A stretch of DNA of 34,774 nt from a virus, in IMG/VR virus record IMGVR_UViG_3300010269_000155; one strand, written 5' to 3'. The notes beneath the pieces are model-generated. The model was not told the origin of the DNA. It did not search any database and worked only from the letters and a program-made list of their open reading frames with translations. The first letter of the stretch is position 1. Each line of letters begins with the position of its first letter. Shown here piece by piece: positions 3,242-32,060 of the stretch. The position numbers and the translations under genes were made by a program.

Positions 3242-3706
3242 ATGGCCACAGTAAAGAAGACAAAGCCAAAAAAACAGGTTAAAAATAGTAAGGTTTTTAC
3301 ATGGACTCCAGCACGTAAAGCTGCGGCTTTAGCACTATCAACAGGCTTGAAAACCCAAAGGCAAGTTTGCAAAGAACTTAACATTACTGAAAAAACGATG
3401 TGTGAGTGGAAGAAGTCTCCTGTTTTTTTAGAAGAAGTTGATAGGCTCACTCTAAAAAACGAGCTGGCTACCAGGGCAGGTCTTCTTAGAGAATGCTTGA
3501 AAGGTCTTGACCTGAAGAGAGACCATATTGAAGGCGATAAGAACACTCACCTTCATTATGTGCAGGCCGTTGCAGATCTCCAGGGCCTGATAAAACAGAA
3601 AGTTGACATCGAAGGGAACATGAACCACACAGGTGGGGCTGTAACAATCTACATTCCTGACAACGGCCGGGATAAAAAACAAGATGAAGAGCAAGAACAG
3701 TCCTGA
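3242..3706 (+). CDS. Terminase small subunit-like HTH protein
   Basis: N-terminal HTH pattern (TQRQVCKELNITEKTMCEWKK); directly upstream of and overlapping terL. Confidence 0.7.
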   Translation: MATVKKTKPKKQVKNSKVFTWTPARKAAALALSTGLKTQRQVCKELNITEKTMCEWKKSPVFLEEVDRLTLKNELATRAGLLRECLKGLDLKRDHIEGDKNTHLHYVQAVADLQGLIKQKVDIEGNMNHTGGAVTIYIPDNGRDKKQDEEQEQS

Positions 3707-5180
3707 AGATCCTTCCGAAAAGGATAAGGAAATCCGTCCTCAGCCAGGACCCCAGGAAGCTTTCCTTAGTTCTCCAGCAGATATAATAATTTTTGGAGGT
3801 TCGGCTGGAGGGGGTAAGAGCTGGGTACTTCTTTTAGAGCCTCTAAGAAACATTGATACAAAAGGATTCACTTCAACTATTTTCCGGAGAACCTACCCTC
3901 AGATCATGAATGAAGGCGGTCTCTGGTCCACATCACAAGAGATCTATCCTTATGCCGGGGGATCACCCAGAGAAGCAGACCTTCGTTGGAAGTTCAAAAA
4001 CGGCAATTCTATCAAGTTCTCGCATCTGGAGTATGAGAAATCTAAGCTGGAATATCAGGGTTCTCAGATCTGCTACATTGGTTTTGATGAGCTCACGCAT
4101 TTCAGCGAGACGATGTTCTTCTATCTCCTGAGTAGAAACCGTTCGACGTGCGGCGTAAAGCCCTACATGAGGGCCACATGCAACCCGGATCCCGACAGCT
4201 GGGTTGCAGAGTTCATTGCCTGGTGGATTAACCAGGAAACTGGCTATCCAATCCCTGAAAGGTCTGGAGTGATACGATACTTTGTCAGGCACATGGACCG
4301 CATATACTGGGCTGACTCTGAAGCTGAATTATGGGACCAGGTCAAGAACTTGATGCCAGAAGAAGACTTTCATCCTCAGTCATTCACGTTTATTGCAGCC
4401 AAGCTGGACGACAATCCTGCACTCACAACAAAAGATCCTGGTTATAGGGGCAGGCTCATGGCTCTTCCTCTTGTAGAACGTGAAAGGCTCCTGGGAGGAA
4501 ACTGGAAGATCAGACATACTGCAGGGACAATGTTCCGGATGGAGTGGTTCCATTTCATAGACCGCTCAGAAGTCCCTTTCAGGTCTCTGAATGAGTCTGA
4601 GCCAGACATCTACGTCATCCCAGAAAATAGCCGGAAAATCCGTGGAAAAATGCGTCTGGTTCGCTGGTGGGATACAGCGGCTACAGAGCCAAGTCCTGAG
4701 AACAAAGATCCTGACTGGACTGCAGGGGTCCTCATGGGAGAGCTGGAAGGGAAGTTCTACATCCTCGACCTGGTTCACGTCCAGAAATCTCCTGGTGATG
4801 TTGAGGACCTCATGGCAGCAACAGCAGAGCTTGACGGGAAAAGCGTCGAGATCGGTATGGAGGTAGAGCCGGGGTCCGCGGGCAAGAGGGAAGCTGAAAG
4901 GTTCAGGAGAACAATCTTTTCAGGATACACTTTTCACGCAGAGCGCAGCTCAGGCGACAAAGTCACCAGGGCAAAGCCTTTCAGTTCAGCTGTTCAGCAT
5001 GGCCTTGTCTATGTTGTCCGGGCCCCTTGGAATAATGAGTATCTTAGCGACCTTGTAAACTTTCCTAACCCGAAATACCACGATGACTGCGTAGATGCAT
5101 CCAGCGCATCAAATGATTACCTGACAAGAAAAGGACCGAATAAAACAAGAGGGATTTCTGCTCTCGTCCGGACTCGATAA
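3684..5180 (+). CDS. terL: Terminase large subunit
   Basis: Q motif (PQPGPQ), Walker A GGSAGGGKS, Walker B YIGFDE, TCNP motif, nuclease acidic motifs WDTAA and HDDCVDA. Confidence 0.95.
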   Translation: MKSKNSPEDPSEKDKEIRPQPGPQEAFLSSPADIIIFGGSAGGGKSWVLLLEPLRNIDTKGFTSTIFRRTYPQIMNEGGLWSTSQEIYPYAGGSPREADLRWKFKNGNSIKFSHLEYEKSKLEYQGSQICYIGFDELTHFSETMFFYLLSRNRSTCGVKPYMRATCNPDPDSWVAEFIAWWINQETGYPIPERSGVIRYFVRHMDRIYWADSEAELWDQVKNLMPEEDFHPQSFTFIAAKLDDNPALTTKDPGYRGRLMALPLVERERLLGGNWKIRHTAGTMFRMEWFHFIDRSEVPFRSLNESEPDIYVIPENSRKIRGKMRLVRWWDTAATEPSPENKDPDWTAGVLMGELEGKFYILDLVHVQKSPGDVEDLMAATAELDGKSVEIGMEVEPGSAGKREAERFRRTIFSGYTFHAERSSGDKVTRAKPFSSAVQHGLVYVVRAPWNNEYLSDLVNFPNPKYHDDCVDASSASNDYLTRKGPNKTRGISALVRTR

Positions 5181-6861: not shown

Positions 6862-6911
6862 GTGCATGACACTGTAAAATGCAATACAATTCAAAAACGG
6901 AGATAAAAACG

Positions 6912-7883
6912 ATGTTAAAACAACTGTTTATGATATTATTTTTAGTTATGCTCTTAGCAACACCGTCAGTCGCAAGTGAAAAAGGTGCTATAATCCAGAT
7001 GACCACAACATTAGAAAACAGCGATACTCAGCTACATTTTAATTATGCTGAAAACCTGGGAGATGGGCGTGGTGTTACATTTGGGTGTATCGGGTTCTGC
7101 ACTGGGACTTATGATGGGAACATCCTTGTCAAACATTATACTGAACTGAATCCAAATAACAATCTTGCAAAGTATATCCCGGCTCTGAATAAGATTGATG
7201 CTGGTCCTCACAATGCAGCAGGTGGAGACGGAAATCCAAGCTTAGAGGGATTATCTGGATTTATAAAAGACGTTCAGTCGTGCAATGACCCACTTTTCAA
7301 GACAGCTCAGATTGACAAACTGGATGAGCTCTACTATAATCCTGCAATGGAAATTGCAGATTCTATAGGCGCAAAAAATGCACTTACTAAAGCTTTCATC
7401 TATGATATGTGCGTCAGGCATGGAGTTGACGGGGCAGAAAGCATCATCAGGAAGGCAGGTACTACTCCGAAGCAGGGAGCTGATGAGAACACATATCTCG
7501 GAAAGTTGATTTCACTCAGGGACGCAAAACTAAAGCAGGAAGGCCTGGGAGATGTAAACAGAGATCAGGGATACAAAAACGTCCTCAACAGTGGAAATGT
7601 TAATCTTCAGACTCCCTTTACTTTCGTTGCTTATGGAGAATCTTTCACTATTGATGGCAACTTAGATCTCGGAGAATACCAGGAAGAAATCCCAGTTGAA
7701 GAACCACCGGAAGTAATCGAACCGGAAGAACCTGAAGAACCTGAAATTACACCAGAGGAACCTGTAATTACTCCAGAAGAGCCTGAAAACACGGAAGAAA
7801 AGGATAACAAATGGCATCATAAAAAATATCATAAACACGGCAGGCATCACAAAGAGTGTCACAGACACAGTAGAAGATGTTGA
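6912..7883 (+). CDS. csn: Secreted GH46 chitosanase homologue with Glu/Pro linker and His/Lys-rich tail
   Basis: LENS...YAENLGDGRGVTFGCIGFCTGT matches the GH46 signature (cf. Streptomyces AENSS...EDIGDGRGYTGGIIGFCSGTG); later similarity in YYNPA, YDMCVRHG, TPKQGADE, GNVNL. Signal peptide starts at ATG 6912 (alternative start 6879). Confidence 0.9.
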   Translation: MLKQLFMILFLVMLLATPSVASEKGAIIQMTTTLENSDTQLHFNYAENLGDGRGVTFGCIGFCTGTYDGNILVKHYTELNPNNNLAKYIPALNKIDAGPHNAAGGDGNPSLEGLSGFIKDVQSCNDPLFKTAQIDKLDELYYNPAMEIADSIGAKNALTKAFIYDMCVRHGVDGAESIIRKAGTTPKQGADENTYLGKLISLRDAKLKQEGLGDVNRDQGYKNVLNSGNVNLQTPFTFVAYGESFTIDGNLDLGEYQEEIPVEEPPEVIEPEEPEEPEITPEEPVITPEEPENTEEKDNKWHHKKYHKHGRHHKECHRHSRRC

Positions 7884-7923: not shown

Positions 7924-9558
7924 ATGCTTCTGAACACTCCTGAGATTCGTCGCATCGAATCCAGGTTCCTTTCTCTTTTTGAAAGAACTTTCCTTAAAGG
8001 AATCAAGGGAAAGCCTGCACCCTCTTACCTGAAATCAGTCAAGACTCAGTTCAAGTCAAAGACCTTCCAGATCCAGGCGGACAAAATCATTGATGATATC
8101 TACCTGCAGTCAATCGAACATACAGACAAACAAACAAAAAAGGCGCAGGCAAGTGTACTAAAAAAAGGCAGTAGGCACTTATCAGCTGCTTCAAAACCTC
8201 TTCCGATTACCGAGGAAGCCGTCAGGCAGGCTGTAGGATTATCGAAGGAAGTAACCGAATCAATCATCAAGTTCCTGAAGGATGATGGGATCTACCTTGA
8301 GCATCCAAACACGCTTGAGAAAAGAGTACGGGAACTATGGGGTGGACAGAAGTATAGAGCTGTAAGATTTGCCAGGACGTTCACAGCTGATGTGGCTACA
8401 AATACAGAGCTCTGGAGATATCAGGATGCAGGGATTGACGACCTGCAGTTCTATGCGAAGATAGATGACAAGACTTCTCCGCAGTGTCGCACTATGCATG
8501 GGACGGTTTTTAAGACTGATTCTCCTGAGGCTAGACGGTACCGTTGTCCTTTGCACCAAAATTGCCGCAGTAGCCTCCTTCCTGTGCCTATCACTCAGAA
8601 AGTAGATCCTAAGATGCGGTTCGAGAACAGGGACTTCACTAGGCAGATGGATCAAGAATTCAATATCCTTGATGACCGAACAGACAAGGACCTCATCAAG
8701 AAAACCTTTTCCGATATCGATACCTTCAATGAGAAGTACAGGATTGATCAGTTCATTCTTGACGAGGATGTAGAAGCCAGGCTGCAGAAGTTGAACATCC
8801 AGATCCTGAGTGAGATCCCAAAGGAGAAAACTAACTTAAAATATACGCCAGTAAAGACAGTTAAAAAGGCTGAGGAGTGGCTATTGGAAAACACTTCAGT
8901 GAAGTATGCCGATTTCAAAGGAGTGCATATAGACATTGTTAATGAGATGATTGAAAGTTTCGTATACCATCTGAATCTAGAACCTAAACTTGCTAACAAA
9001 ATGAAATTTTATGGAACAGGACAGGCACAATTCGAGCTGTGGTATCAGGATGAACTCAAGAAGGAAATCGAGTGGCTAAAAAAACTCCACCCAGAAGATG
9101 AAAAACTCATATTAGAAAGGGCAAAGAGGAGAATTAAAAAGCCAAAGATGGATGGCAAAACATACGCTCATTCGTGGAATCATCCCAAGTTTGGAGGCAT
9201 TGGAGTAAATAAAAAGTTCGGTAGCAACCCATTAACGTTTTCTGAATGTGCCGAAAAAGATGAGAGTGTAGGATGGCATCCTACAGGCTGCAAAACTATT
9301 AAATCGATATTCGATCACGAGTTTGGCCATGAGTTAGATAACATTTATAACATATCCAATTCAGATATAGTGTCAAATCTCTATACCAAAAAAAATATTG
9401 AAGAAATTCATAACAACCTTTCTAGGTATGCTCTGACTTCCAAACAAGAGCTTGTGGCAGAGGCATGGGCAGAATATCTAAATAATCCAAGTCCCAGAAA
9501 TATTGCAAAGGAAGTTGGAGAGTTTATAACGTCAGAAGTCAACAAGGGTAAATCATGA
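7924..9558 (+). CDS. MuF (SPP1 gp7-like) minor head protein with C-terminal HExxH metallopeptidase-like extension
   Basis: MuF motifs (DDKTSPQCRTMHG, PLHQNCRS) in the N-terminal half; HEFGH, LSRYA and ELVAEAW in the C-terminal domain. Confidence 0.85.
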   Translation: MLLNTPEIRRIESRFLSLFERTFLKGIKGKPAPSYLKSVKTQFKSKTFQIQADKIIDDIYLQSIEHTDKQTKKAQASVLKKGSRHLSAASKPLPITEEAVRQAVGLSKEVTESIIKFLKDDGIYLEHPNTLEKRVRELWGGQKYRAVRFARTFTADVATNTELWRYQDAGIDDLQFYAKIDDKTSPQCRTMHGTVFKTDSPEARRYRCPLHQNCRSSLLPVPITQKVDPKMRFENRDFTRQMDQEFNILDDRTDKDLIKKTFSDIDTFNEKYRIDQFILDEDVEARLQKLNIQILSEIPKEKTNLKYTPVKTVKKAEEWLLENTSVKYADFKGVHIDIVNEMIESFVYHLNLEPKLANKMKFYGTGQAQFELWYQDELKKEIEWLKKLHPEDEKLILERAKRRIKKPKMDGKTYAHSWNHPKFGGIGVNKKFGSNPLTFSECAEKDESVGWHPTGCKTIKSIFDHEFGHELDNIYNISNSDIVSNLYTKKNIEEIHNNLSRYALTSKQELVAEAWAEYLNNPSPRNIAKEVGEFITSEVNKGKS

Positions 9559-10657: not shown

Positions 10658-10961
10658 AAAAGCAAAATTTGTTTACTTACTTTCTTCTGCCATTCTGCTC
10701 TGTTTTATGTGGTGGACTTAGATATGAATTTCTAAGTTCTTCAGTGCAAATTTTTAAGGCTTTATCTATTTTTAAATCGGGAACTATCGTATTTTCTCAA
10801 CATATCTCGTATTTTCTCAATCCACTTTGGATAAAGAGCCATCTCTCGTTCACGTCTTTTACTTACCAAGAGCACCACGCATAGTATAATGACTTATCAT
10901 CTTATAAAAAAACTTATTACTACAGGGCTACCTTTGGTGTAATTCTTCTGTTTTTGAGCTG

Positions 10962-10984
10962 AAAAAAGGAAAAAAGAGAAAAAA
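10962..10984 (-). terminator. Oligo-U terminator for the minus-strand operon
   Basis: A-tracts on the + strand (U-tracts on -) about 20-45 nt after the stop at 11007, typical of archaeal intrinsic terminators. Confidence 0.5.
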
Positions 10985-11006
10985 GCTTTGCTGGGAATGC
11001 CTCTTT

Positions 11007-11846
11007 TTAATACGTTATCTTATTGTTTCTTGTTATAGCACTTGGTGCATCAATTCCCGGCTTCGCACATTTCTCAATTATGTTGTCCTCTATGATTACA
11101 TTTGACATTTTTGCCTCTATTGCTCGAACTCCTGGATAAGGTAGGTCCTTGATAGAATTCCCATAAGCTCGGATATCCTTGAGTTCTCCCTGCAACTGCA
11201 GACCAGTATGGCCACCTCCGGAGGTGCTGCATTTGTTGTTAAGAAACTCCCCTTTTGTCACGTTATAGAAGCGGCAGCTGGAATTTGTTCGGTTGATGAA
11301 CGTGGAATTTCTAACAGAGATGCCGTCCACGTAATAAGCGTATATCCCATCATGCCCACATTTGTTGACAGTTATTCGGTCTATGTCAACACCATAACAG
11401 TTGTTAAGCAGGATGGCATCATTGCAACCGTTCTGGAAAACACAATCCTCGAGAGTCAAACCGTTACAGCCTATCAGGGTTGCCATGTTATAAAGCGAAG
11501 TTCCGAGCCTGACGTCAGGATAATAATCACTCTGACTACCATCGACAGTGAAGTTCTTCAGGACCACATTGTTTGCGGAGTTTCCAGCGATCATCAGCAT
11601 AGCCTTTTCTTCTTTGATAGGACATCCACGGTAACCCCAGGCAGGCAGCCCTTTTGCGAGCTTTATTGTTGCACCATTTCCATCGAAGATGGTATGGCTA
11701 CGGAACAGGAGAGAATCTTCTATTGTGTAGATGACATCCGGATCCAGGATTATCGTCCCACCATGAGCAAGAGCTTGATTGATTGCTTCTGACGTGGTCC
11801 CACGATATGTCCTGAGCTTTCCATCTGCGCCGATAGCTTCAATCGT
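11007..11846 (-). CDS. Right-handed beta-helix (pectate-lyase-like, disaggregatase-related) protein; true 5' end is an ACG start at 11846 or read-through of TAG 11850
   Basis: Frame is open for 83 codons upstream of ATG 11600 and encodes a typical beta-helix cap (AINQALAHGGTIILDPDVIYTI...DGNGATIKL); GHDG and RTNS motifs. Confidence 0.7.
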   Translation of the reverse strand, partial: TIEAIGADGKLRTYRGTTSEAINQALAHGGTIILDPDVIYTIEDSLLFRSHTIFDGNGATIKLAKGLPAWGYRGCPIKEEKAMLMIAGNSANNVVLKNFTVDGSQSDYYPDVRLGTSLYNMATLIGCNGLTLEDCVFQNGCNDAILLNNCYGVDIDRITVNKCGHDGIYAYYVDGISVRNSTFINRTNSSCRFYNVTKGEFLNNKCSTSGGGHTGLQLQGELKDIRAYGNSIKDLPYPGVRAIEAKMSNVIIEDNIIEKCAKPGIDAPSAITRNNKITY

Positions 11847-11849
11847 GTT

Positions 11850-12431
11850 CTATCGCTTCAGTTTGACGTATATTTCAATACCTTCTGCCCGCTCCTTGAT
11901 CTTCTCGGATATCTCTTCGGCTTCTGACTCAGAGACACATGGAATTACCAGGTAGGCTGCATCGTCCGGCTGAGTAGGGATCTCGGGTGTTTCAGGCTCC
12001 GGTTCGGTTGGCTTTTCAGGCTCCACAGGCTGTTCTGGTTCAGGCTCAGGATCGACATAAGAATAAGTGTATGCCACGTTCATCATTCGGGATCTGGGTG
12101 TCCCAGAGGTTTTCAGATACCATCTGATGATAACAGGCTTTCCAACTCCGGCAACAAAATCTACTGCCTTGAGCTGCTCTTCATATTTTGTATTCTTTGT
12201 TGTGAATGTTGCCAGTTGTTCCTGCTTCCCATCGACTTCTATAGTAACTATGCATGTGCCTTCAATGCCTGAAGCCGAAACCTGAAATAACATGGAAAGC
12301 TTTTCAATCTTGATCCTCTTACCTTCCTGTGCTGGAATCGTTTCTTTTTTCTGCATTTCCCTTTCTGTCGAAAAATCGATTTCGGTGTAGATGGTCGAAT
12401 ATACTTTTTTTGTATCCTCAATGGTAGGCAT
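11850..12431 (-). CDS. Hypothetical protein: beta-rich domain, Pro/Glu linker, short C-terminal module
   Basis: PEPEPEQPVEPEKPTEPEPE linker; ATG 2 nt after the upstream stop with AGGAG RBS. Confidence 0.75.
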   Translation of the reverse strand: MPTIEDTKKVYSTIYTEIDFSTEREMQKKETIPAQEGKRIKIEKLSMLFQVSASGIEGTCIVTIEVDGKQEQLATFTTKNTKYEEQLKAVDFVAGVGKPVIIRWYLKTSGTPRSRMMNVAYTYSYVDPEPEPEQPVEPEKPTEPEPETPEIPTQPDDAAYLVIPCVSESEAEEISEKIKERAEGIEIYVKLKR

Positions 12432-12433
12432 GG

Positions 12434-13714
12434 TTATTTTCTCCTAAAAATCTGTTTTTCTGGTAATGAATTTCGAATAGCAGTAACCTGTTCAGAACTA
12501 CAAGAAATAAACAAGAAAGCTGGTCTTTCAGCTGGCTCTTCTTCTGGACCCTCAACTGTGCTGGATACATTTATTGCACCGTAGTAATCCCCAGATTCGT
12601 TATTCAGGAAAGTGTTCTCAGAAGCTTCAACGGTATAGTAATCCTTTCCAAGAACATTGGCAATTGCATATCCTGAAACTGCCCCTGGATAGAAGGCCTT
12701 CCTTGTATTGACAATTGAGTTCTTCCTGACTGTTGCTTTGCAGCCCTTCACCCCACCTTTCCCGATGTAGTTGTCAAAACTGACCGCATTTCCAGAGCAC
12801 CCATCAAAAATATTGTTCTCGATCAGAACATCCGTGAAACCATCAAAAACCATCCCACCTACTCCAGGGATCGTGTTCGCTGCTGGCATCATACCGCAGT
12901 TTCTGAATGTATTGTGATGGATGTACACTCCAGCTGCACCGCCCAGAGGCACGCTTGCTATACCCCAGACACCAGGTCCGTAAGTGTCCTGGACCAGGCA
13001 ATTCTTCATCTCGATATGCATGCATTTTGTCCCGTCCAGGATATTCTCAAGCTGCACAGGCGGAGCCCAGGCATTGTTCGTGAAGTCGTGGAACTGGCAG
13101 CTGTCAATCAGGACATTAGAAGAGGACCTTACCCGGACAGCATTGTTAGCCCGGATTTCAAAAGAACAGTTTTCAATCGTGGCTCCAGAACATTTGAAAA
13201 GGTGAATGAAGTCATGTCCCCCTTCTGCACCGGAGCAGTGGTCAAAGACAAGGTTTGAACCGCCGTTCAGCCTCCACCCATCCCCCTCATTCCGGTTCAC
13301 TTCCACATTCCGGAATACTGAGTTTGTGATATTTGAAAAGCCGAACAGGTTTCCATACCCTACTCCATGATCGTTCTGAGTGTTTCCCTGGTTTGCATAG
13401 TTCCCATCATAGACAAGGCCGTCAACTTCCAGGCCTGTAATCGAAGAGCCTTTCTGTCCTATGATAGGGACCTGTGCTCCAAAGTTAGGAGCGTTGTCCA
13501 TGAGCTTCCATGTCACTCCTTCCTCGAAAGTCATTTTTGTATTATCGTTCAAAAACAGCCGGGAGTTGAGGAGGTATTGTCCGGTATCGCCTTTCAAAAA
13601 ATGAACATGTGAGTACTGTAGCAGATCGCCGTTCACCGTTCCCGTTTTGTCAAGTGCCTTCTGTATGCCAGGGGAACTTGTTCCCTTAACCGGGGTTAGT
13701 ATGCAGGTTTCCAC
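12434..13714 (-). CDS. Right-handed beta-helix, disaggregatase-related polysaccharide depolymerase-like protein
   Basis: Repeating beta-helix turns; GHD, TYGPGVW, VYIHHNTF and IENNIFDG motifs as I recall them from Methanosarcina disaggregatase-related proteins; GTG start with GGTGG RBS. Confidence 0.75.
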   Translation of the reverse strand: METCILTPVKGTSSPGIQKALDKTGTVNGDLLQYSHVHFLKGDTGQYLLNSRLFLNDNTKMTFEEGVTWKLMDNAPNFGAQVPIIGQKGSSITGLEVDGLVYDGNYANQGNTQNDHGVGYGNLFGFSNITNSVFRNVEVNRNEGDGWRLNGGSNLVFDHCSGAEGGHDFIHLFKCSGATIENCSFEIRANNAVRVRSSSNVLIDSCQFHDFTNNAWAPPVQLENILDGTKCMHIEMKNCLVQDTYGPGVWGIASVPLGGAAGVYIHHNTFRNCGMMPAANTIPGVGGMVFDGFTDVLIENNIFDGCSGNAVSFDNYIGKGGVKGCKATVRKNSIVNTRKAFYPGAVSGYAIANVLGKDYYTVEASENTFLNNESGDYYGAINVSSTVEGPEEEPAERPAFLFISCSSEQVTAIRNSLPEKQIFRRK

Positions 13715-13739
13715 AAAACCACCGTTATGTTTTTACATT

Positions 13740-13754
13740 GTTAACGCTGTTAAC
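13740..13754 (-). promoter_or_regulatory. Conserved operator GTTAAC-AGC-GTTAAC, copy 3 (minus orientation)
   Basis: + strand reads GTTAACGCTGTTAAC, the exact reverse complement; 25 nt upstream of GTG 13714, after TTTATTAAA. Confidence 0.8.
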
Positions 13755-14216
13755 TTTAATAAATCATTTCTTCCTAAAGATCGCCACATTCACGAAAAAA
13801 GCCTGAACCTTCGGTGTTCGTCCTGAAGAATACAAAAACAGGTTGTGGGGATGATTCTCACCTGCGTAAAGAAGAATCAAAGGCAATGAAGGCAAAAATC
13901 ACTCTCTTTTTTACTTTCCTTTTTAGGAAAACAAATGTTCCGCGAACATCATATTAGTAATATTTCTTCTGAAATTTCTTTTTATAATTTGGCAATAAAA
14001 TATAACTGTGTGACACTTCTCTATGCTTTAGCAGTTTATCAGTGATCAAATACATCTTTTAATCATTAATTTTTGATAAAAATTGGCTAATTAAAATATA
14101 TATAATTATATTAGATAATATATAGGTAAAAAAATCTATATTTAGTATTTATAACTTAAATACATACTTAGACGAATTTAATTTTTATAAGATTATATTT
14201 TATATATATTTTTTGA

Positions 14217-14247
14217 ATATGAGTCAAGGCATATGCTCATATATAAA
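14217..14247 (+). promoter_or_regulatory. Inverted repeat ATATGAG-N12-CTCATAT overlapping a TATATAAA box, candidate promoter of the cargo gene
   Basis: Arms at 14217-14223 and 14236-14242; TATATAAA at 14240-14247. Confidence 0.4.
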
Positions 14248-14506
14248 TTTTTTAGCCAAATAATCGAAAGATAAAAAATTAAGAAATTTATTTCAATCAA
14301 AATAAATCTGAAAATTGTATTTTTTGACTATTTGGCCGAAAAACTTACAAAGGATGAGTAAATATGAATTTATGGAGTTCAAGAGTTTTCCAAGACCAAC
14401 TTAACTCCATAAAATATGCCAAAGAGGCATGATTAAGTTAGCTTTGCATATATTAAAGCTTACCTGATTCTGCCTCCTGGGTAAAATGCACAGGAGTGAG
14501 TAAATA

Positions 14507-15667: not shown

Positions 15668-15949
15668 TAAAGCAGATTATGGAAACTGAAAACAAAGATG
15701 TCATTCGACTTATGAGCTGAAAAATCAGACATCAATACGTAGATAGGCTGCTTAGCTATAGGTTTAGCAACATCAGGCTCCTGCTCGACAAGAAGGAATG
15801 TTTTATTGTCCAGATATTTTTGGATCTGATTTTAATCTTATATTGATCACAATAGGCGCTCTATTGAAAAAAGTAAGCACAATACAGAACTCATAAAATA
15901 TTAGTGAAATAATTATTATATTTTATAAAAAATATAAGGTTGGATAAGC

Positions 15950-16849: not shown

Positions 16850-16973
16850 AGTCCTTAATTACGGGCATGTTTCTGTCATTCATTACAAACGGAAAAACGG
16901 CAGTGTTTGATTCCATAAAAAATTTATTGAAAAAAGAATAAATTAGCTGATAAATAGAACGAACAGATTCAGC

Positions 16974-17009
16974 TTTTCCTTTGCTTCTTGTAATTCCTTT
17001 TTTCTTTTT
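16974..17009 (+). terminator. U-rich terminator after the cargo genes
   Basis: Runs of T (cttttcctttg...ttccttttttcttttt) before the next promoter. Confidence 0.45.
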
Positions 17010-17056
17010 AGATCTTCCTACAATTATACAGTTTAATAATAGATATATTTATAATT

Positions 17057-17071
17057 GTTAACAGCGTTAAC
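17057..17071 (+). promoter_or_regulatory. Conserved operator GTTAAC-AGC-GTTAAC, copy 4
   Basis: Exact 15-mer after TTTATAATT, 8 nt before ATG 17080. Confidence 0.8.
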
Positions 17072-17079
17072 ATTGTAAA

Positions 17080-18551: not shown

Positions 18552-19481
18552 ATGACAGGTGGAAACGCACTTCTCACACATCTCAAGGATCTGTTTGATC
18601 CGACTATTATTTCGGTACTGACTGCTCAGTCGGTCGGTAGACAGCTCATGCCAATCAATCCAGAACTCTCAGGTCAGGGGCTCGGTGTCCTCACCGTCGA
18701 AACGCTGCGTTATGTAGCTCGTAGCGGCGCAATCACAAACTACGACATCCAGAAAGACATCGAGGACACTATTGACATCGAGAGTCTTCAGGTTCGCGTC
18801 CCTGTCCAGCAAGACATGGTGCGTATCAAGTACCGTGATTGGCTGGCATATCAGAAGAAGAAAATCCCGATTGAGGCAGACATCAGTACCGATATGACTG
18901 CAAAAATCGCAAGGGAGCAGGACAAAATCATTGCTGATGGTTGGAAACCGCAGGGTACAAATTACCTAATCAAAGGGATGTACCAGGTGGCTGGAAACTC
19001 TGTTATCGGGGAAGATTCTGGAAGTTATGGAAACGTTAAATCTGCAGTCGTCGCTGCAATTTCAAAACTCAAGCTGAGTGGCGTCTATTCCCGTGGATAC
19101 AACCTTTCCCTTGCTCCTTTCAACTATGCTGAGCTCATGGACTCCGAGAATGACACAGGAAAAGAAGAAACCGCTGCAATCCTGAAAATCCTTAACGCCG
19201 CAGCACCAAACGGATCACAGCCAGGACAGATCTATGAAGTCCCTGATCTCGCAGCCGGAACCGCAATGGTAAGCCCCATAGCTTCTCAGGAGAACCTCAG
19301 ATTCTTCGACATCATTGAACTTCAGGTCCCGGAAAATGATCTCTGGTATGATGGCGGCAGACCGAAGGGCGACATCATGATGGAGCAGGTCGGTGCTCTG
19401 GTTCCACGGTTCAAACACCTTGATCCGGACACGTTGACCGACCCATGTGTCTGTAAGATTACCAGCCTTGGAACAAGCTAA
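18552..19481 (+). CDS. Major capsid protein (HK97 fold)
   Basis: 309 aa; AREQDKIIADG and AVVAAISKLK...GYNLSL segments typical of HK97/encapsulin-like shells; position in the module. Confidence 0.8.
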   Translation: MTGGNALLTHLKDLFDPTIISVLTAQSVGRQLMPINPELSGQGLGVLTVETLRYVARSGAITNYDIQKDIEDTIDIESLQVRVPVQQDMVRIKYRDWLAYQKKKIPIEADISTDMTAKIAREQDKIIADGWKPQGTNYLIKGMYQVAGNSVIGEDSGSYGNVKSAVVAAISKLKLSGVYSRGYNLSLAPFNYAELMDSENDTGKEETAAILKILNAAAPNGSQPGQIYEVPDLAAGTAMVSPIASQENLRFFDIIELQVPENDLWYDGGRPKGDIMMEQVGALVPRFKHLDPDTLTDPCVCKITSLGTS

Positions 19482-23090: not shown

Positions 23091-26000
23091 ATGAGTGCTG
23101 GTGAACTGGTTGTTTCCATTATCGGAGATATGAAAGAACTGTCCCGTGTCTTCTCTCAAGTTCAGACTGAAGTTGGGAAAGTGGGAAAACAGTTCGAGAC
23201 GATGGGGAAATCACTCAGTTCAGCCGGAACCAGTATGGCAGCCGGGATAACTGTTCCGATCCTTGCTATTGCCGGTACTGGTGCTCTTCTGGTTAATTGG
23301 GCTAACGATGTTGGAAAATCTCAGGGACAGGTAAAGGCTTCCCTCGGCCTTACAGCAGAAGAAGCAAACAAGCTTACAGACGCAGCAATGAACGTCTGGA
23401 AAAACGGCTTCGGAGACTCAATAGACGCGGTTAATCAGGTTATTGTTTCAGTCCGGCAAAACATGGGTGACCTCGCCGGTCAAGAACTTGAATCAGTCGC
23501 TTCTGGAGCAATCACAATATCTGAACTTTTCGGGGATGATGTCAACGAAGTAACAGCAGCTGCAGGCGTCCTAATGCGGAACTTCGGGATAGATGGACAG
23601 CACGCCCTGGACATCATCACAACAGGCTATCAGCAAGGCGGGGATTTTTCAAAAGAACTCCTGGATACCCTCCGGGAATATGCTCCGCAGTTTCAGGCCA
23701 TGGGTGTTTCTGCAGACGAGTTTCTAGCTATTCTGATTTCGGGTGCAGAGGCGGGAGCCTGGAACCTTGATAAAGTAGCTGACGCAGTCAAAGAGTTCAA
23801 TATTCGTGCCCAGGACGGTTCAGATCTTACAATAAGCGGGTTCGCAGCTATCGGTTTAAGCGCGGACGAGATGTCCCAGAAAATAGCAGCCGGTGGGGAC
23901 TCTGCAAAAGAGGCTTTTATTGCTACTGTTGCCGGACTTATGGCTATCGAGGACCCTGTAAAACGTAATATAGCCGGGGTTGCCCTGTTCGGAACTCAAT
24001 GGGAGGACGTAAAAGCTCAGGTAATTGATGCCACAGCCTCCGGGATACAAAACGTCCAGGACGTTGCAGGCGCGACGGATAAGGCTGCTAAAGACGTTGC
24101 CGATTCGAATCCAATGCTCGCGCTTACGGAAGCCGCACGGGATCTTCAGGCCGACCTGCTTCCAATTATACAAGGGCAGATAATTCCACTTATCACCCAG
24201 GATCTGCTTCCGATCCTGACAGGAACACTGATTCCTTTCATCGAGAATGTCGCACTCCCGGCTATATCTGCATTTGTAGAAGGATTTGCAGCGCTGCCTG
24301 AACCAGTCCAATTGGGAGCAATTGCGTTTACAGCATTCATTACCGCACTCGGTCCGATCCTCATGCTTGTGGGCGCGGTAGTATCCTCAATCGGAACTCT
24401 CGCTACTGCCGTGGGAACTGGCGGAGTGCTGGCCACAGCTTTTGCCTCTGCCAAACTCGCTATTACTGGATTCCTGACAACTCTCTCAGGCTTGGCTCTC
24501 CCTATTGCAGCTATCATTGCTGTGGTTGCTGCTCTTGCGCTTGCCTGGAAAAACAATTGGGGAGATATTCAGGGCAAAGCAAAAGCTGTATGGGACTGGC
24601 TACAGTCCGAAATGAATAAGCTTGTAAACAGGCTTGAATACTATTATCACGCCCTTGTTATGGCGATTAGTGCAGCCGACCTTGAGGATAAATGGGATCG
24701 CATTAAAAACCGGCTCGAATACTACTATCATGCTCTTGTGATGGGTGCGAGTGGTCTGTACAACGACCTGAAAAAGTATTGGGATGAACTGTCTACCGCA
24801 CTCGAACCCGCAAAGGAAAGTCTCAGTTCAGCATGGGACAGTATAAAAACGATCTGGGAAACGTTCAAAACCTCGTTCCTTGACAGCATGAGTACCCTGT
24901 ATGAGAACGTGAAGAAAGCTCTCGAACCCCTATGGGACACCCTTGATGAACTGTGGCAGCAACTCAAAGAAGACGTAATTCCTGTCGTCCTTGACTTCCT
25001 TGGCTCTTTTAGCGGCTCGGCCATGGACGACGCACAGGGCGATATCGATTCACTCACGGGTATCATTAATTTCCTTAGCGAGAAACTCAGTGAGTTCCTC
25101 GATTGGGTAGCACGTCACCCCGAAATCACCGAATTTGTTGCCACAGTTGCGGCTATGGCTGTAGCTATACCGGTTGCTCTCGGTCTTTTAGCTGCCGGTA
25201 TTGTCCTGTTTGTCGCAAAAGTCGTAAGCCTGTTTATTGAGCTTGTCAAAGCCGCATATGACCTGTATACTGATTGGAAGGCTCATTTTGAAAATTTGAA
25301 GACTACAGTAACCCAAGCTATTGATTATATCATTGCAAAGGTTCGGGGTTGGTATACTGAAAACGTAAACAAATTCAACCTGATTAAATCTGCCGCGTTG
25401 GATTTACTGAATAACTGGCGTACGCATTGGGACAATATCAAGACCACTCTAACGCAGGCCGTTTCTGATATCGTCACAAGATTACAGGGCTGGTATAATG
25501 ACACCCAGGCCAGATTTACCCAAGTAAAAACAGCCGCTCTAGCCCTTCTCATTGACTGGCGTACTCACTGGGAGAATTTCAAATCAACATTAACACAAGC
25601 AGCAGCTTATATCATGACCAAACTGCAGGGCTGGTACACTGATACTCAAAATAAATTCAATCTGGTCAAAGCAGCTGCCCTTGATATTCTCAATAACTGG
25701 CGTACACACTGGGAGAATTTCAAGACCGCTCTCAATCTAGCTGTAGCTAACATTATTGCCAAGTTGCAGTCCTGGTACACGGACGTACAGAACAGGTTTA
25801 ATCAGGTCAAGGCGGCGGCTCTTGCTTTTTATAACAACTGGAAAGCAAGGTGGGATTCGATATGGAAGACCCTCAGCGATGCTAAGGACTACATTATCAA
25901 TACCGCTCAGATGCTTTACAACGATCTGCTAAACCGGTATAACCGGATTAAAGCGGAGCTTTCTAACCTGCTTACTGAATGGAAGGCAAGATGGAACGAA

Positions 26001-26744
26001 ATATATACGTCCGTAAAAACGAAGGCTACCGAGATCGTTAATGAGGTTTACGGGATTGTAACCAAACTTAAAAACAAGGCAACCGAGTTTTATAACGCAG
26101 GAAAGAACCTTGTCCAGAACTTGATAGACGGGATCAACGACAAAATTTCTTCTCTCAGGAAAAAAATAGACGAACTAACCTCAATGATAGCCGACTATTT
26201 GCCTATGAATAGTCCGTCATTGAAAGGTGCTCTTTCAAAACTCCCAAAATGGGATGACGTTGTTTCAAGTCCAGTCGCTAAATCGCTTTCTTCTACAGTT
26301 TCAGCAGCTAAAAGCGCAGGGTCCTCCATAGTAAGCTCTATCGCGAGCGGAATATCCTCAGCTGCAAAAACTGCATACAACGCTGCCTCTTCTGCCCTTA
26401 AAAAAGTCAAGAGCCTGCTCCCTCACTCTCCTGCGGAAGAGGGACCTTTCTCAGAAATCCCTAACTGGGACTCTATTTTCGTTGACCCCATGAAGGAATC
26501 AATCGCAAGGACAGCCGAGCTTGCAAAACCTCTCAGTCAGGCTCTTAGTAGTGTTCGTTCTCCTATCGATTCCCTTTCTGGTGGACTCGGTCAGGTTGCA
26601 GCTGTCACAAACAACAGCTTTGCAGGAGACACGATCACAATCGGACCGAACACGCTGGCAAACAGTGTAGATGTCAGGATGCTGATTGAAGAACTGAACA
26701 AATACACGGCAAACAAGAGAAGGGCAAGGGGGCTGTACTCATGA
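23091..26744 (+). CDS. Tail tape measure protein
   Basis: 1217 aa, Ala/Gly-rich; minor-tail motif LDTLREYAPQF...GAWNLDKVADAVKEF; Trp-spaced repeats. Confidence 0.95.
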   Translation: MSAGELVVSIIGDMKELSRVFSQVQTEVGKVGKQFETMGKSLSSAGTSMAAGITVPILAIAGTGALLVNWANDVGKSQGQVKASLGLTAEEANKLTDAAMNVWKNGFGDSIDAVNQVIVSVRQNMGDLAGQELESVASGAITISELFGDDVNEVTAAAGVLMRNFGIDGQHALDIITTGYQQGGDFSKELLDTLREYAPQFQAMGVSADEFLAILISGAEAGAWNLDKVADAVKEFNIRAQDGSDLTISGFAAIGLSADEMSQKIAAGGDSAKEAFIATVAGLMAIEDPVKRNIAGVALFGTQWEDVKAQVIDATASGIQNVQDVAGATDKAAKDVADSNPMLALTEAARDLQADLLPIIQGQIIPLITQDLLPILTGTLIPFIENVALPAISAFVEGFAALPEPVQLGAIAFTAFITALGPILMLVGAVVSSIGTLATAVGTGGVLATAFASAKLAITGFLTTLSGLALPIAAIIAVVAALALAWKNNWGDIQGKAKAVWDWLQSEMNKLVNRLEYYYHALVMAISAADLEDKWDRIKNRLEYYYHALVMGASGLYNDLKKYWDELSTALEPAKESLSSAWDSIKTIWETFKTSFLDSMSTLYENVKKALEPLWDTLDELWQQLKEDVIPVVLDFLGSFSGSAMDDAQGDIDSLTGIINFLSEKLSEFLDWVARHPEITEFVATVAAMAVAIPVALGLLAAGIVLFVAKVVSLFIELVKAAYDLYTDWKAHFENLKTTVTQAIDYIIAKVRGWYTENVNKFNLIKSAALDLLNNWRTHWDNIKTTLTQAVSDIVTRLQGWYNDTQARFTQVKTAALALLIDWRTHWENFKSTLTQAAAYIMTKLQGWYTDTQNKFNLVKAAALDILNNWRTHWENFKTALNLAVANIIAKLQSWYTDVQNRFNQVKAAALAFYNNWKARWDSIWKTLSDAKDYIINTAQMLYNDLLNRYNRIKAELSNLLTEWKARWNEIYTSVKTKATEIVNEVYGIVTKLKNKATEFYNAGKNLVQNLIDGINDKISSLRKKIDELTSMIADYLPMNSPSLKGALSKLPKWDDVVSSPVAKSLSSTVSAAKSAGSSIVSSIASGISSAAKTAYNAASSALKKVKSLLPHSPAEEGPFSEIPNWDSIFVDPMKESIARTAELAKPLSQALSSVRSPIDSLSGGLGQVAAVTNNSFAGDTITIGPNTLANSVDVRMLIEELNKYTANKRRARGLYS

Positions 26745-28004: not shown

Positions 28005-31000
28005 GTGCAGCGTTACCTCGCCTGGAAGTATAAAAAGGAGCTTCTGATCTCGAACCCTTCAGCTACCGAAGGTCTTCAGGTTTTTTTCACCCTGCCGTAC
28101 TATCCTGGCATGAGGTATGATTTTAGGGACATCAGGTTTACAACAGTTAGCGGAACTGCTATTCCGTACTTCATAGAGAGCGTAATTAATTTTACTTCTG
28201 CTTTTGTGTGGCTGAAACTACCGGCTAACACAGATTTAATCTTATTATATTATGGAAACGGAAGCGTAACTTCTGCAAGTGATGCATCAACTGTATTCGA
28301 ATTGTGGGATGATTTCTTAGGGACATCCATAAACACTTCTGTCTGGAACGTTGGAGGCAGTGGAGGATCAGTATCCGGCTCAATCCTGACTTTACAGCAC
28401 TCATCTTTGAGCGGATACATCGAGAGTAAAACTCTGTATGTTCCCAATTCTCTGGTTGAAATGCGGATAGCACATCAGTCAGGACAAAGAGGACCGTTTG
28501 GATTCCGGAGCACGAGCACACAAAAAGCAGCTGCCTGGCAGGGTGCAGCTGGTAGCCTCCTGACAGACCACAGGTTTGCACACAATGGTTCGTCAGGGGA
28601 TTGGGACAACGATGGCGTAAACCGGTCTGGATCGGTTTACAACATATACGGAGTCGCACATGTAGCTGCAGGCCCCCGATACTATGTTAATTACTCGTAC
28701 AGGGGAGAGATTACGACCACAGTACCGGGTGCTGTAAACCTCCCTGTTCAGATTTATTCTTATTATGGAGAAGGATATATCAAAGTAGATTGGGTTCGTG
28801 TTCGGAAATATTCAGCCTCGATGCCCGCAATCAGTGTAGGTAGAAAACATATCAATCAACCGAAAACTTTCACGTTGCCTGAACCTATAACTGCATCAAC
28901 TGCAGTTGAGATGGTACCAGAAGTTTCCCTAAAAGGATTCGTCAATGCTTCGACACAGGTATCAATGGTTCCTGTTGCCATGTTCAGGCAACCACTATTC
29001 TATCAGCCTGCAGTCACGGGCCCTTACCAGCAGTGGAAGTTCAGGGGAGATGTCCGGATCGAAACTCTGGACAGACCTGTCCAGATCAGCATACCGTTGT
29101 CCCCGGGGATGGCTGTAGATGGTAGGGACCTGAGATTCTCTGACACTCGAGGAAACATTCTAAGATACAACCTCGAGTCTGCAGAAAACAGCATGTTTTC
29201 CTTTTGGGTTGATGTTCCGGAAGATGCAACAAAAATCCATTACTATTATGGCAACGGAGTAGCTGTATCTGAAAGTGACGACAGCATAACAGGCGAGCCC
29301 TCTCTACTCACTGAATATTACCTCCCTGAGATTCCAGGCCCTTATCAAAAGTGGAAATTCTTGGGAGATATTGAAATTACTGACATCCCTGCAGGGGAAA
29401 CTGTCCAGAGGGTGAACATCGACCTTCTTCCAGGAATGAACTTGGACGGGAGAGACCTGCGTTTCTCAAGCACTGAAGGACAGGAAATCCCGTATAGAAT
29501 AGAGTCCCTGGAGAGCGGGGTTTTCACCTGTCTCGTTGAGTGGCCTGCAGGGACTTCAAAAATACATTTCCATTATGGTAACGGAACGGCTGTTTCAGAG
29601 AGTGACGGCAGTATAACTCTGGATCCTATTGTTACCACGATGTCTATGCCGTCCTCGATTGCATATCCTCGCTGGAAATACCGGGGGGATATCCGGATAA
29701 GTGCAGTTCCTGCTGTGGATACTCAGATCCTTGTAGATATTCCCAGGCTTCCCGGGATGACTCTGGATGGCAGGGATCTGAGGTTCTCTGACAATGCAGG
29801 AACTGCAGTCAAGTACTTCCTGGAGTCCTCGGATTCAGACTCGTTTTCCGTATGGATCAGGTGGCCGGCAGGATCCTCAAAGATTCACTTCTACTACGGT
29901 AACGGTGCAGCAGTTTCTGAAAGTTCTGCAGCAGATGTTTTCAATTTCTGGGAAGATTTCGACAGCCTGGACCCCGGTGTCTGGACTACATTGGCAGGCT
30001 CTCCTGTGATATCTGATTCAAAATTGTACCTCAGCAGCACAACTGTCAACTCCCTGCTCAGATCGGTTTCAATGTTTGGGACAGGGACGTTGCTGGAAAT
30101 GAGGATGTATCACGCTCAGAACAACCAGATGATATGCGGGTACTGGTCCTCGGCAAATCAGAGGGCCTGCTGGCTGGGTGCAAGTGGCACGTCTAATTAT
30201 GATTATATGCACACCCACAATGGCAGCACGTCGACCTCTGTAAACGATAACGTATACCGTTACGGGACAACGTTCTACAAGTACGGAGTTGCATATAATT
30301 CAGGTAGCGTTGTATTCTACGTGGATGACGCGCTGAGGGGCACGATCACAACCAACGTACCATCTGGGGACCTGCCTATAAGTCTATATAGCGAGGTCAA
30401 TGCCGGAGAGCTGGTCATTGATTGGATCCGGGTCAGACAGCAGACAGATGCTGTGGCTGCTGTGGAGAAACATTATCCTCAGAGTGTTTCAGGTTTCCAG
30501 ATTGAAGAGGTGCAACCAATCACGGCTTTTGTTTCCAGGCATCACCCGAGGTGGCAGGTTCCGCTCAAAATAGATACACCTGTTGCAACTGCTGTCCTTG
30601 AACGGCACTACCCCAGGTGGCAAACTGCGATTCGGTACTATGACTATATTGCTCCACAGGCATACGTTTTCATGCAGCCTGACGTGGTAAAATGGAAGGA
30701 ACGCAAGGAGCTTAGAGATTACTCTGTAGGAGCCATTGAGGTTTCGAAATCCATCAATGATACTTACCTGCAGTTGTCTACTGAGTTTGTGGACCTTGTC
30801 GTACCTCCGGAGGACTCGACGATCAAACACGTTGCCAATGATTCGCAAGGCAACCCTCACCTTCTCTTCAATGGAAAAGTTGTTGCAAACAGCTCTGTAA
30901 TGAGATACAATGGAAATTCGGTATCCATGCAGGCAGCTGACCTTTCAAGAAACCTTGTGGTCCAGAAGGTCCCTTGGAACTATCAGGTGGTGGATGGCGA

Positions 31001-32060
31001 GACTGCCTCATGGCCTTCCTGGATCCAGACTTTGCTGGCGCCAGAAGAAACTGGTGTATATGCGAAAACTTTGACAGACACTCATAAAGAGCCTAAACAG
31101 TTTGTTTTCAACCCGAAGACAACCCGGCTGGAAGCAATCAAGGAAATAGCTGGCTATGTTGGCTGCATGATCCATATAAAGCTCATTACCCGGGAGATTT
31201 CCGGGCTTACAGTTACCAGGCCAGAGTTCTACCTCGTGCAACCTGAGAACATAGACCTGAGCGCAAACGGGTTTGATCTTCCCGCTCCCATCACCCTGAT
31301 TTATCCTGATCCCTCTCTTGTAGATGAACCAAAGATAGTTTCGGAACCTGAAGAAAAGTACAACAAAGTGACGGTTCACGGGATCCTGAGCGAGACCGGG
31401 GAAACTGTTGTTGCCTCTGCTTTTTCTGCGGCTGTCTACTCAGGTGAACAGAAGGCAAGAGAGTACATGATAGAGGACAATTCAATTTCTGAGAAGGGTA
31501 GCACAGCCGAAAGAGAGGCAGTCAAGTGGTTGTTGTATTTCCTGACACCCCGGGCAAAGGTGTCTATGCAGTTCGTTGACCGGTTCGACCTGGAACTATA
31601 TCAGAGGATCCGGTTTGGCTCTGGATTCTCCAGGGGTCTACAAGCTCTTACAAGCTCCGTTCAGGTCCCCGTGGTCTATGCCTGTGACCCCAGGGATGCA
31701 GCGAACAGTACACACTCAGTTGATGTCTCAAGAGTTCCGCGTCCATCATGGTTAAGGATTTCAGAAATGAAATATCACAGTGAACACGCTCTTGAAACGG
31801 TTGATGTTACTGCAATTACAGATTTCATCTATTCCTCGGTTGATCCGGTTGTCCCTGATCCTTACTCCCAGTACCTCAGTCCCGGGTACATGAAACCAAT
31901 CATCGATGACCTGGTCCAGACTACACAGACGATAGTGGACGATACCATCGAAAAGCAGTTGACTCCCCAGAGCGGTACTGTCCTGTCAGTGAACGAAGAA
32001 ACGAAAACGGCAGTCGTGCAATTGGCGGACGGAAAAATTGTGACGGTGTCACTGGCATGA
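28005..32060 (+). CDS. Large tail-tip protein: four DUF2341-like repeats, two lectin/ConA-like domains, C-terminal hub-like region
   Basis: Repeats of W-K-(Y/F)...PGM...D.RF...(I/V)..YYGNG.A.SES; lectin-like ends VDWVRVRKY and IDWIRVRQ. Confidence 0.75.
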   Translation: MQRYLAWKYKKELLISNPSATEGLQVFFTLPYYPGMRYDFRDIRFTTVSGTAIPYFIESVINFTSAFVWLKLPANTDLILLYYGNGSVTSASDASTVFELWDDFLGTSINTSVWNVGGSGGSVSGSILTLQHSSLSGYIESKTLYVPNSLVEMRIAHQSGQRGPFGFRSTSTQKAAAWQGAAGSLLTDHRFAHNGSSGDWDNDGVNRSGSVYNIYGVAHVAAGPRYYVNYSYRGEITTTVPGAVNLPVQIYSYYGEGYIKVDWVRVRKYSASMPAISVGRKHINQPKTFTLPEPITASTAVEMVPEVSLKGFVNASTQVSMVPVAMFRQPLFYQPAVTGPYQQWKFRGDVRIETLDRPVQISIPLSPGMAVDGRDLRFSDTRGNILRYNLESAENSMFSFWVDVPEDATKIHYYYGNGVAVSESDDSITGEPSLLTEYYLPEIPGPYQKWKFLGDIEITDIPAGETVQRVNIDLLPGMNLDGRDLRFSSTEGQEIPYRIESLESGVFTCLVEWPAGTSKIHFHYGNGTAVSESDGSITLDPIVTTMSMPSSIAYPRWKYRGDIRISAVPAVDTQILVDIPRLPGMTLDGRDLRFSDNAGTAVKYFLESSDSDSFSVWIRWPAGSSKIHFYYGNGAAVSESSAADVFNFWEDFDSLDPGVWTTLAGSPVISDSKLYLSSTTVNSLLRSVSMFGTGTLLEMRMYHAQNNQMICGYWSSANQRACWLGASGTSNYDYMHTHNGSTSTSVNDNVYRYGTTFYKYGVAYNSGSVVFYVDDALRGTITTNVPSGDLPISLYSEVNAGELVIDWIRVRQQTDAVAAVEKHYPQSVSGFQIEEVQPITAFVSRHHPRWQVPLKIDTPVATAVLERHYPRWQTAIRYYDYIAPQAYVFMQPDVVKWKERKELRDYSVGAIEVSKSINDTYLQLSTEFVDLVVPPEDSTIKHVANDSQGNPHLLFNGKVVANSSVMRYNGNSVSMQAADLSRNLVVQKVPWNYQVVDGETASWPSWIQTLLAPEETGVYAKTLTDTHKEPKQFVFNPKTTRLEAIKEIAGYVGCMIHIKLITREISGLTVTRPEFYLVQPENIDLSANGFDLPAPITLIYPDPSLVDEPKIVSEPEEKYNKVTVHGILSETGETVVASAFSAAVYSGEQKAREYMIEDNSISEKGSTAEREAVKWLLYFLTPRAKVSMQFVDRFDLELYQRIRFGSGFSRGLQALTSSVQVPVVYACDPRDAANSTHSVDVSRVPRPSWLRISEMKYHSEHALETVDVTAITDFIYSSVDPVVPDPYSQYLSPGYMKPIIDDLVQTTQTIVDDTIEKQLTPQSGTVLSVNEETKTAVVQLADGKIVTVSLA

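Follow-up and report, generated by a model that had tools for sequence, protein, structure and literature searches.

Several depolymerase tailspikes per virus are well known in bacteriophages, CBA120 with its TSP1-4, Klebsiella phage K64-1 and Sf6/P22 being examples. Another close described system is the disaggregatase of Methanosarcina mazei with the families PF08480 (Disaggr_assoc) and PF06848 (Disaggr_repeat). Here we describe a viral DNA stretch of 34,774 nucleotides (nt), the IMG/VR record IMGVR_UViG_3300010269_000155, referred to as the window (the whole stretch is meant), in which three beta-helix coding regions are found at the places given by an initial annotation of the sequence. One of them, coding for 489 amino acids (aa), closes the tail operon. 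The other two belong to a minus-strand block, the cassette, which indeed lies in inverted position between an array of small genes and the cargo and head genes. The initial annotation took this block for two genes; however, it comprises three open frames of 426 aa, 193 aa and 280 codons, the middle one having been overlooked (Table 1). The explanation that we favour, with moderate confidence, is that these genes encode a late, signal-peptide-less set of tailspike/depolymerase-type proteins which is probably virion-associated, and in which the 426-aa and 193-aa genes form a mobile pair while the third helix is an extension reached through a UAG codon.

Similarly to the multi-tailspike phages, one virus here encodes several beta-helix glycanase-like proteins, with genes that close the tail module (the 489-aa gene in the window and the cassette in related viruses). 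In contrast to those phages, the virus infects an archaeon, a shared C-terminal or internal beta-alpha-beta mini-domain and a separate jelly-roll partner take the place of an N-terminal adaptor domain, one cassette is displaced and inverted, and one of the enzymes is predicted to depend on UAG read-through. The M. mazei disaggregatase shares with the 426-aa and 489-aa proteins the PF08480 match, a beta-helix domain of catalytic type and the host genus. It differs from the window proteins in that these have neither the PF06848 repeat nor a signal peptide and are the products of viral, probably late, genes. What is new here is the archaeal, disaggregatase-related setting, the architecture of binder and mini-domain, and the putative UAG-dependent enzyme extension. 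The full-text literature searched, which left many subscription papers uncovered, contained no description of such enzymes for viruses of Methanosarcina.

Three beta-helix regions, their partner protein and their relatives

Membership in the disaggregatase-related family, proposed in the initial annotation for all three regions, holds for two of them. In Pfam searches PF08480 was matched by the 426-aa protein (82.7 bits, E 4.3e-23) and by the 489-aa protein (70.9 bits, E 1.8e-19), the gathering cut-off being 22.6 bits, and both were also matched by PF13229 (Beta_helix; E 1.7e-15 and E 5.3e-10, respectively). The 280-codon helix, on the other hand, gave no PF08480 match at E up to 0.1 in Pfam and was recognised only by the Beta_helix and NosD families. 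Its tie to the disaggregatase family appears to be indirect, through a related locus (L018) where this type of helix is joined over a TAG codon to an upstream open reading frame (ORF) with a different N-terminal domain, a full PF06848 Disaggr_repeat (E 6e-81, with a CBM96 match too). PF06848 was matched by none of the window proteins in Pfam; besides L018 it is present in the relative P0175, and the identity to relatives which combine PF06848 with PF08480, such as P0175, is only ~31%. In addition, PHROG 2234, labelled 'tail spike', was matched by the 426-aa protein (E 4.9e-12) and by the 280-codon product (E 4e-7).

The AlphaFold2 (AF2) model of the 426-aa protein is a right-handed beta-helix with a mean predicted local distance difference test score (pLDDT) of 87.2. 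When it was compared with PDB and BFVD by Foldseek, the best matches were the AlgE4/AlgE6 epimerases, alginate epimerase/lyase, GH87, RbmB lyase, GH28 and phage tailspikes, and structures of Sf6, CBA120 and phi29 gp12 were also among the matches. The AlgE4/AlgE6 A-modules, PL6, GH28 and RbmB, matched at E 1.6e-9 to 1e-5, are beta-helix enzymes acting on uronic-acid or acidic polysaccharides, with an identity to the 426-aa protein of only 11-16%. A sequence search against solved structures gave weak matches only (5olp, E 3e-4; 4mxn, E 0.025).

The GHD and R-x-N-[NS] motifs were rightly said to be common to all three regions. In each of them the set D / GHD / R-x-N-[NS]..R is found with identical spacing (D-22-H and H-21-R, approximately one coil each), and reading of the translations places the motifs in register on three consecutive coils. 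The motif residues are invariant in the alignments of both the 426 family and the 280 family. Among 17 aligned homologues of the former, 36 columns are invariant and include D115, H116, D145, H167, D168, H171, N191, R194, R196, Q221 and E223. The stack is the probable active site of what may be a hydrolase, a lyase or an epimerase.

The three regions had been described as paralogues. They are homologous indeed, as BLASTP relates the 426-aa protein to the 489-aa protein (26% identity, E 3e-19), the 489-aa protein to the 280-codon helix (E 5e-9) and the 426-aa protein to the latter (E 2e-5), and when the profiles of the two families, 426 and 280, are aligned by hhalign the probability is 98.7% (E 4e-16, 239 columns), the part of the 426 family homologous to the 280 type being its N-terminal two thirds. 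However, with pairwise identities of 22-26% they are three old subfamilies with separate histories and not recent paralogues.

The suspected link to host copies was borne out for the 280 type, which is ~58% identical over ~85% of its length to a secreted Methanosarcina family of ~298 aa (DU86_02190 of M. mazei, for example) having the same invariant motifs. The host proteins stand alone and carry a signal peptide, whereas the viral helix is joined to a mini-domain or binder. Homologues of the 280 type were found at 57 loci, in nearly every Methanosarcina genome sampled and often several per genome; a crude leader test detected a signal peptide in 84 of the 120 homologues listed, the closest 27 being without one. 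Judged from these comparisons, the viral helix may descend from the secreted host enzyme family or share ancestry with it. Apart from this provirus, nearly all occurrences of the 426 and 489 families are on contigs of viral size, and their nearest named host-type relatives are 31-35% identical. One 280-type homologue, the mini-domain plus beta-helix gene P0024, belongs to an element (L012/L013; for example L012:6093-7046 and 12276-17046) that also contains fragments of a resolvase and an integrase and a CRISPR-Cas-like set of type IV (Csf1, Csf3, RAMP), and the helix gene therefore also moves on non-tailed mobile elements.

None of the 426-aa, 193-aa, 280-codon and 489-aa products begins with a signal peptide or a hydrophobic leader when the N-termini are read directly, which agrees with what had been stated for the minus-strand genes and extends it to the 489-aa protein.

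In all relatives examined, the gene for the small protein accompanies the Disaggr_assoc gene. The AF2 model of the 193-aa protein (pLDDT 92.1) displays an eight-strand jelly-roll beta-sandwich. In the C-terminal module DSSP marks helix only, at residues 168-179, and the module is read as beta-alpha-beta from the hydrophobic stretches flanking this helix. The VIA-align matches of the jelly roll at Z 10.3 to 9.0 are the Pgp3 TNF-like domain, CBM36, the PLTL lectin, CBM6/16 and phage fibre tips, and the Atlas leads resemble them. Based on these models the jelly roll may bind a glycan or a receptor, a reading strengthened by the CBM96-like Disaggr_repeat that occupies the same slot in L018. It is weakened by the fact that matches at Z ~10 represent a very common arrangement, with many unrelated jelly rolls ranking just below Z 9.0. 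The 193-aa family comprises 45 clusters, nearly all of them free-standing and 160-190 aa long. The suggestions that the ORF is spurious or codes for a chaperone were rejected on account of the confident fold (pLDDT 92) and the conservation of the 45-cluster family.

In the alignment of the 426 family, a linker and the mini-domain form the C-terminus as they do in the 193-aa protein. In the relative P0008, a hidden Markov model (HMM) of the mini-domain located it with the helix on one side and GH46 on the other (E 5e-6), and the model gave weak scores in the expected places, namely the C-terminus of the 426 family and the N-terminus of helices fused to it by sense codons. Given this placement, the mini-domain may be a modular joint or docking piece. 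Joint structure prediction of the 426-aa and 193-aa proteins, made to see whether they pair through the mini-domains, gave a score of 0.18 (mark 0.32), which speaks neither for nor against such pairing. P0008 (locus L007) combines in a single chain of 685 aa the helix with Disaggr_assoc, the mini-domain and GH46, and adjoins another beta-helix protein and a baseplate-type protein of the YQBQ kind. As a Rosetta-stone fusion it supports a common target of the helices and GH46, and with it the earlier idea of a multi-enzyme system in which GH46 co-operates.

The 489-aa gene starts 4 nt inside the end of the 1351-aa tail gene, and the two are translationally coupled. A gene of the 489/495-aa type is located directly behind the giant DUF2341 gene also in L080 and L081, and the 489-aa protein is most likely the resident tailspike. 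Residues ~395-489 (~100 aa) match no family and are different in the relatives of 541-546 aa, P0159-P0161, which cover only ~80% of the query. This suggests that the C-terminal region is swappable. In L008 (3805-8712) and L010 (1918-6735) a Disaggr_assoc beta-helix is found inside the giant tail protein of 1605-1635 aa, and the giant protein of the window has DUF2341 instead.

The amber junction

The third helix had been annotated as a gene at 11846-11007. It is not a gene with a normal start, as there is no ATG, GTG or TTG in the 83 codons after the TAG at 11850-11852, and the frame of the 193-aa ORF runs on through this TAG straight into the helix. The start-less codons encode the N-terminal cap and the first coils. 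Of the 34 principal ORFs of the window, 22 end in TGA, 11 in TAA and only one in TAG, at this junction. In the L008/L016/L017/L020/L021 lineage the same TAG is separated from the helix by ~30 Pro/Glu-rich linker codons, and in L018 by ~22 linker codons, whereas in the window there is no linker at all. Despite these different lengths the frame is kept across the junction in all three lineages, and the first canonical start comes 86 codons (L008 lineage) or 103 codons (L018) after the TAG. For the start-less codons, comparison of the window with L018 gave a ratio of nonsynonymous to synonymous substitution rates (dN/dS) of 0.145, with dS saturated. Finally, in P0022, P0024 and P0027 the mini-domain and the helix are joined by sense codons within one ATG-started gene.

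In Methanosarcina acetivorans UAG is both stop and pyrrolysine (Pyl) codon, no signal being required, and truncated as well as extended forms result; that the genus decodes Pyl is established (PMC12626013). The rarity of TAG, the start-less frame, the kept junction, the sense fusions, the dN/dS value and the ambiguity of UAG combined make it likely that a 474-aa product is formed by read-through with pyrrolysine. A tRNA scan of the window found none, and the virus is thus without a suppressor or Pyl tRNA of its own. The predicted arrangement resembles the A1 read-through protein of Qbeta and the UAG/Pyl cases of Methanosarcina (PMC12626013) in that a predominant short form would be accompanied by a less abundant long one with an extra functional domain. 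Unlike Qbeta A1, the added part would be a whole glycanase domain, the virus is an archaeal DNA virus, and the inserted residue would be pyrrolysine.

Pyl supply in Methanosarcina tracks methylamine metabolism. The UAG junction might consequently serve as a metabolic dial by which the share of binder with a depolymerase domain follows the host diet, a proposal that we consider speculative and rather unlikely.

Promoter copy, synteny and the virus

The promoter/operator region of the cassette is 34 nt long and contains a TATA-like tract, the palindrome GTTAACAGCGTTAAC and ATTGTAAAA. It is an 88% inverted copy of positions 17047-17080, ahead of the head operon. The 15-nt GTTAACAGCGTTAAC has four copies in the window versus 0 expected from shuffles, and is also found ahead of positions 3242 and 5620; the promoter element is common to the terminase, portal and head operons. 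Because a copy of the head-operon promoter stands ahead of it, the cassette is probably expressed late with the structural genes. Between the two inverted 34-nt copies, which bracket it, positions 13731-17080 form an AT-rich island (32-38% GC) with cargo genes of 386 aa and 299 aa. By recombination between the copies, neighbouring segments could have become inverted or inserted. When flanking inverted repeats that might account for the inversion were looked for, nothing was detected but the promoter copies and A/T tracts of low complexity.

The pair, consisting of a Disaggr_assoc gene of 417-443 aa and the gene for a small protein, is kept in each relative. In L008/L009 it directly follows, together with its TAG-joined helix and on the same strand, the tape measure, a 1635-aa tail protein and a 387-aa gene, and is located just before the integrase; the preceding 1635-aa protein itself contains Disaggr_assoc. 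In L010 it comes after the tape measure, proteins of 1605 aa and 375 aa and a tailspike-like protein of 666 aa, on the strand of the tail genes, and in L011 and L081 it lies slightly past the tail genes. The synteny of the relatives points to the pair being a mobile accessory module of the tail region, of which the window has a displaced and inverted copy.

The window is a temperate tailed virus or provirus whose hosts are of the Methanosarcina thermophila type, and its other genes recognised by Pfam are included in Table 1. An identical 426-aa protein in the same gene context is present in GCA_900116525 and CP011449. The former is M. thermophila DSM 11855, the envelope of which is listed as 'MC + S-layer' (PMC10658910), 'MC' being read here as methanochondroitin, and the latter is the thermophilic-digester Methanosarcina OTU795 (PMC4703610). 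The 426-aa protein is also found on many biogas metagenome contigs, the index giving 212 blocks of the collection. Searches of the GenBank phage collection, with DNA as well as with protein, gave no match, and a scan of viral contigs with the 426-aa protein found nothing.

In the CP011449 copy (L005; CP011449.1, 2625860-2647140) the capsid, GH46, tape measure and helix extension are among the genes that are split or uncalled, which reflects either a decayed provirus copy or indel errors in an older assembly. In L002 and L004 (13300-21281) the cassette and the head and tail genes are followed by Methylase_S, the type I restriction protein HsdR, a YgjP-like and a PolB-like gene. The corresponding side of the window (from ~10450 leftwards) has the small-gene array, MuF, GH46, portal and terminase instead, and the recombination boundary lies just past a 52-aa gene downstream of the cassette.

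Table 1. Coordinates of the beta-helix regions, the cassette elements and other recognised genes in the window.
Feature	Position	Strand	Description
Large terminase	3684..5180		Pfam call
GH46 glycanase gene	6879..7883	+	PF01374 E 4.3e-46
MuF-like gene	7924..9558		Pfam call
Probable cassette terminator, T-rich tract	10960..11006	-	T runs after TAA stop, direct reading
280-codon beta-helix extension	11007..11849	-	In frame after TAG; PF13229 E 2.1e-13; NosD (PF05048) E 1.1e-5
193-aa small protein	11850..12431	-	Jelly roll residues 3-126, Pro/Glu linker, mini-domain; stop TAG 11850-11852
426-aa beta-helix protein	12434..13714	-	Disaggr_assoc and Beta_helix, acidic/Pro linker, C-terminal beta-alpha-beta mini-domain
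Cassette promoter/operator region	13731..13764	-	TATA-like tract, GTTAACAGCGTTAAC palindrome, ATTGTAAAA
HK97-type capsid	18552..19481		Pfam call
Tape-measure gene	23091..26744		Pfam call
1351-aa tail protein	28005..32060	+	Four DUF2341 repeats, PF10102 E 8.8e-47
489-aa beta-helix protein	32057..33526	+	Disaggr_assoc; last gene of tail operon
Integrase	33527..34774	-	Pfam call

Proposed function and competing explanations

In the explanation that we favour, the 489-aa protein would be the product of a fixed terminal tail gene, a tailspike coupled to the DUF2341 giant, and the cassette would be a mobile two-gene module of a 426-aa enzyme and a 193-aa glycan or receptor binder, both ending in the same mini-domain after a flexible linker. 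The module ends the tail operon in related viruses, and in the window it would be expressed late from its inverted place behind the copy of the head-operon promoter. Where UAG is read as pyrrolysine, the 280 helix would be appended, giving a short binder-only form and a long, 474-aa form with binder plus enzyme. The helices would cut a uronic-acid-containing surface glycan, for which methanochondroitin is the obvious candidate. Glucuronic acid is a constituent of methanochondroitin, and M. thermophila, too, is dispersed by the M. mazei disaggregatase (PMC12369344); together with the fold matches to polyuronate enzymes this makes methanochondroitin the leading candidate substrate.

The initial annotation had proposed a division of labour, in which only the 489-aa protein is carried by the virion for entry, and the cassette proteins are soluble and released at lysis with GH46, dissolving the matrix for escape. 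Free depolymerase release at lysis is common among phages, and several observations that weigh against virion attachment fit such a model: in the window the cassette stands outside the tail operon under a promoter of its own, reading of the beta-helix protein sequences revealed no recognisable virion-adaptor domain at the N-terminus, and small genes separate the pair from the tail genes in L011 and L081. Nevertheless, the pair of the relatives is found at or near the end of the tail module on the tail-gene strand, directly behind the tail genes in L008/L009 and L010, the shared C-terminal mini-domain and the binder partner resemble assembly parts more than free enzymes, and the fusion of helix and GH46 belongs to a baseplate-type module beside YQBQ. 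The division of labour in this form is therefore considered improbable, although free enzyme may be released at lysis. Considerably less probable is that the beta-helix proteins bind receptors as fibres or adhesins without being catalytic and only widen the host range, for which it can be said that the adhesin PfbA, a beta-helix protein, appears with epimerases among the best fold matches and that the catalytic residues of the helices are putative. Three subfamilies of such low identity have retained invariant acidic, His and Arg residues in register, PF08480 was defined on a real matrix-degrading enzyme (Pfam; PMC12369344), and a relative is fused to the GH46 hydrolase, all of which argue for catalysis. 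Lysogenic conversion, with the prophage cassette steering host aggregation and dispersal as a borrowed disaggregatase, would be in line with the wide occurrence of the provirus in digester Methanosarcina (the 212 blocks mentioned above) and with the control of host dispersal by a related enzyme (PMC12369344). It appears most improbable of all, since export from an intact lysogen is unlikely for proteins without a signal peptide, and since the promoter element is that of the terminase, portal and head operons.

A further competing explanation concerns the TAG. If it is a plain stop, the 280 helix is either made alone from ACG 11846 or ATT 11843 or is an untranslated remnant. The stand-alone, ATG-started helices of the 280 type, P0035-P0040, count in favour of this, and as their ATG aligns by eye with the window ACG at 11846-11844, non-canonical initiation is possible. 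Likewise, the small gene at L081:17079-17615 ends in TAG with an in-frame TGA three codons on and has no helix extension, which indicates that TAG in this position need not mean fusion; the two stops may be what is left of a read-through extension since lost, or the second may serve as a back-up against the ambiguity of UAG. The small genes without extension in L010 and L011 stop at TGA and TAA. It should also be borne in mind that the Pyl supply of the host varies with growth substrate, so that the long form may be rare. These points weigh against read-through. Yet a separately made helix hardly accounts for the L008 and L018 lineages, where ~30 and ~22 linker codons in the kept frame precede the helix and the first start is so far downstream, for the sense fusion of mini-domain and helix in P0022, P0024 and P0027, or for the avoidance of TAG as a stop elsewhere in the window, and the dN/dS value speaks against the remnant version. 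A helix made alone, or not made, is accordingly given a small probability, and read-through remains the preferred reading of the junction.

The amber-joined gene would be a concrete and testable case of viral exploitation of the Pyl/UAG ambiguity. If the metabolic dial were true, what the host feeds on would set how much enzyme the virion or lysate carries, two forms of a structural or enzyme protein being made by way of the ambiguous host codon for the 22nd amino acid. The beta-alpha-beta mini-domain, if it does join binders, beta-helix enzymes and GH46, would represent a new modular docking system. A possible use of the enzymes is the dispersal of Methanosarcina granules in digesters. According to a 2024 review (PMC10791045), crossing of the S-layer is still a mystery for most archaeal viruses, and the review asks whether enzymatic activities are found in further archaeal virions. 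When inside aggregates, cells of M. mazei are resistant to infection by the spherical virus MetSV (PMC12369344), and a tailed virus with several disaggregatase-like enzymes would show how a virus handles the aggregate matrix.

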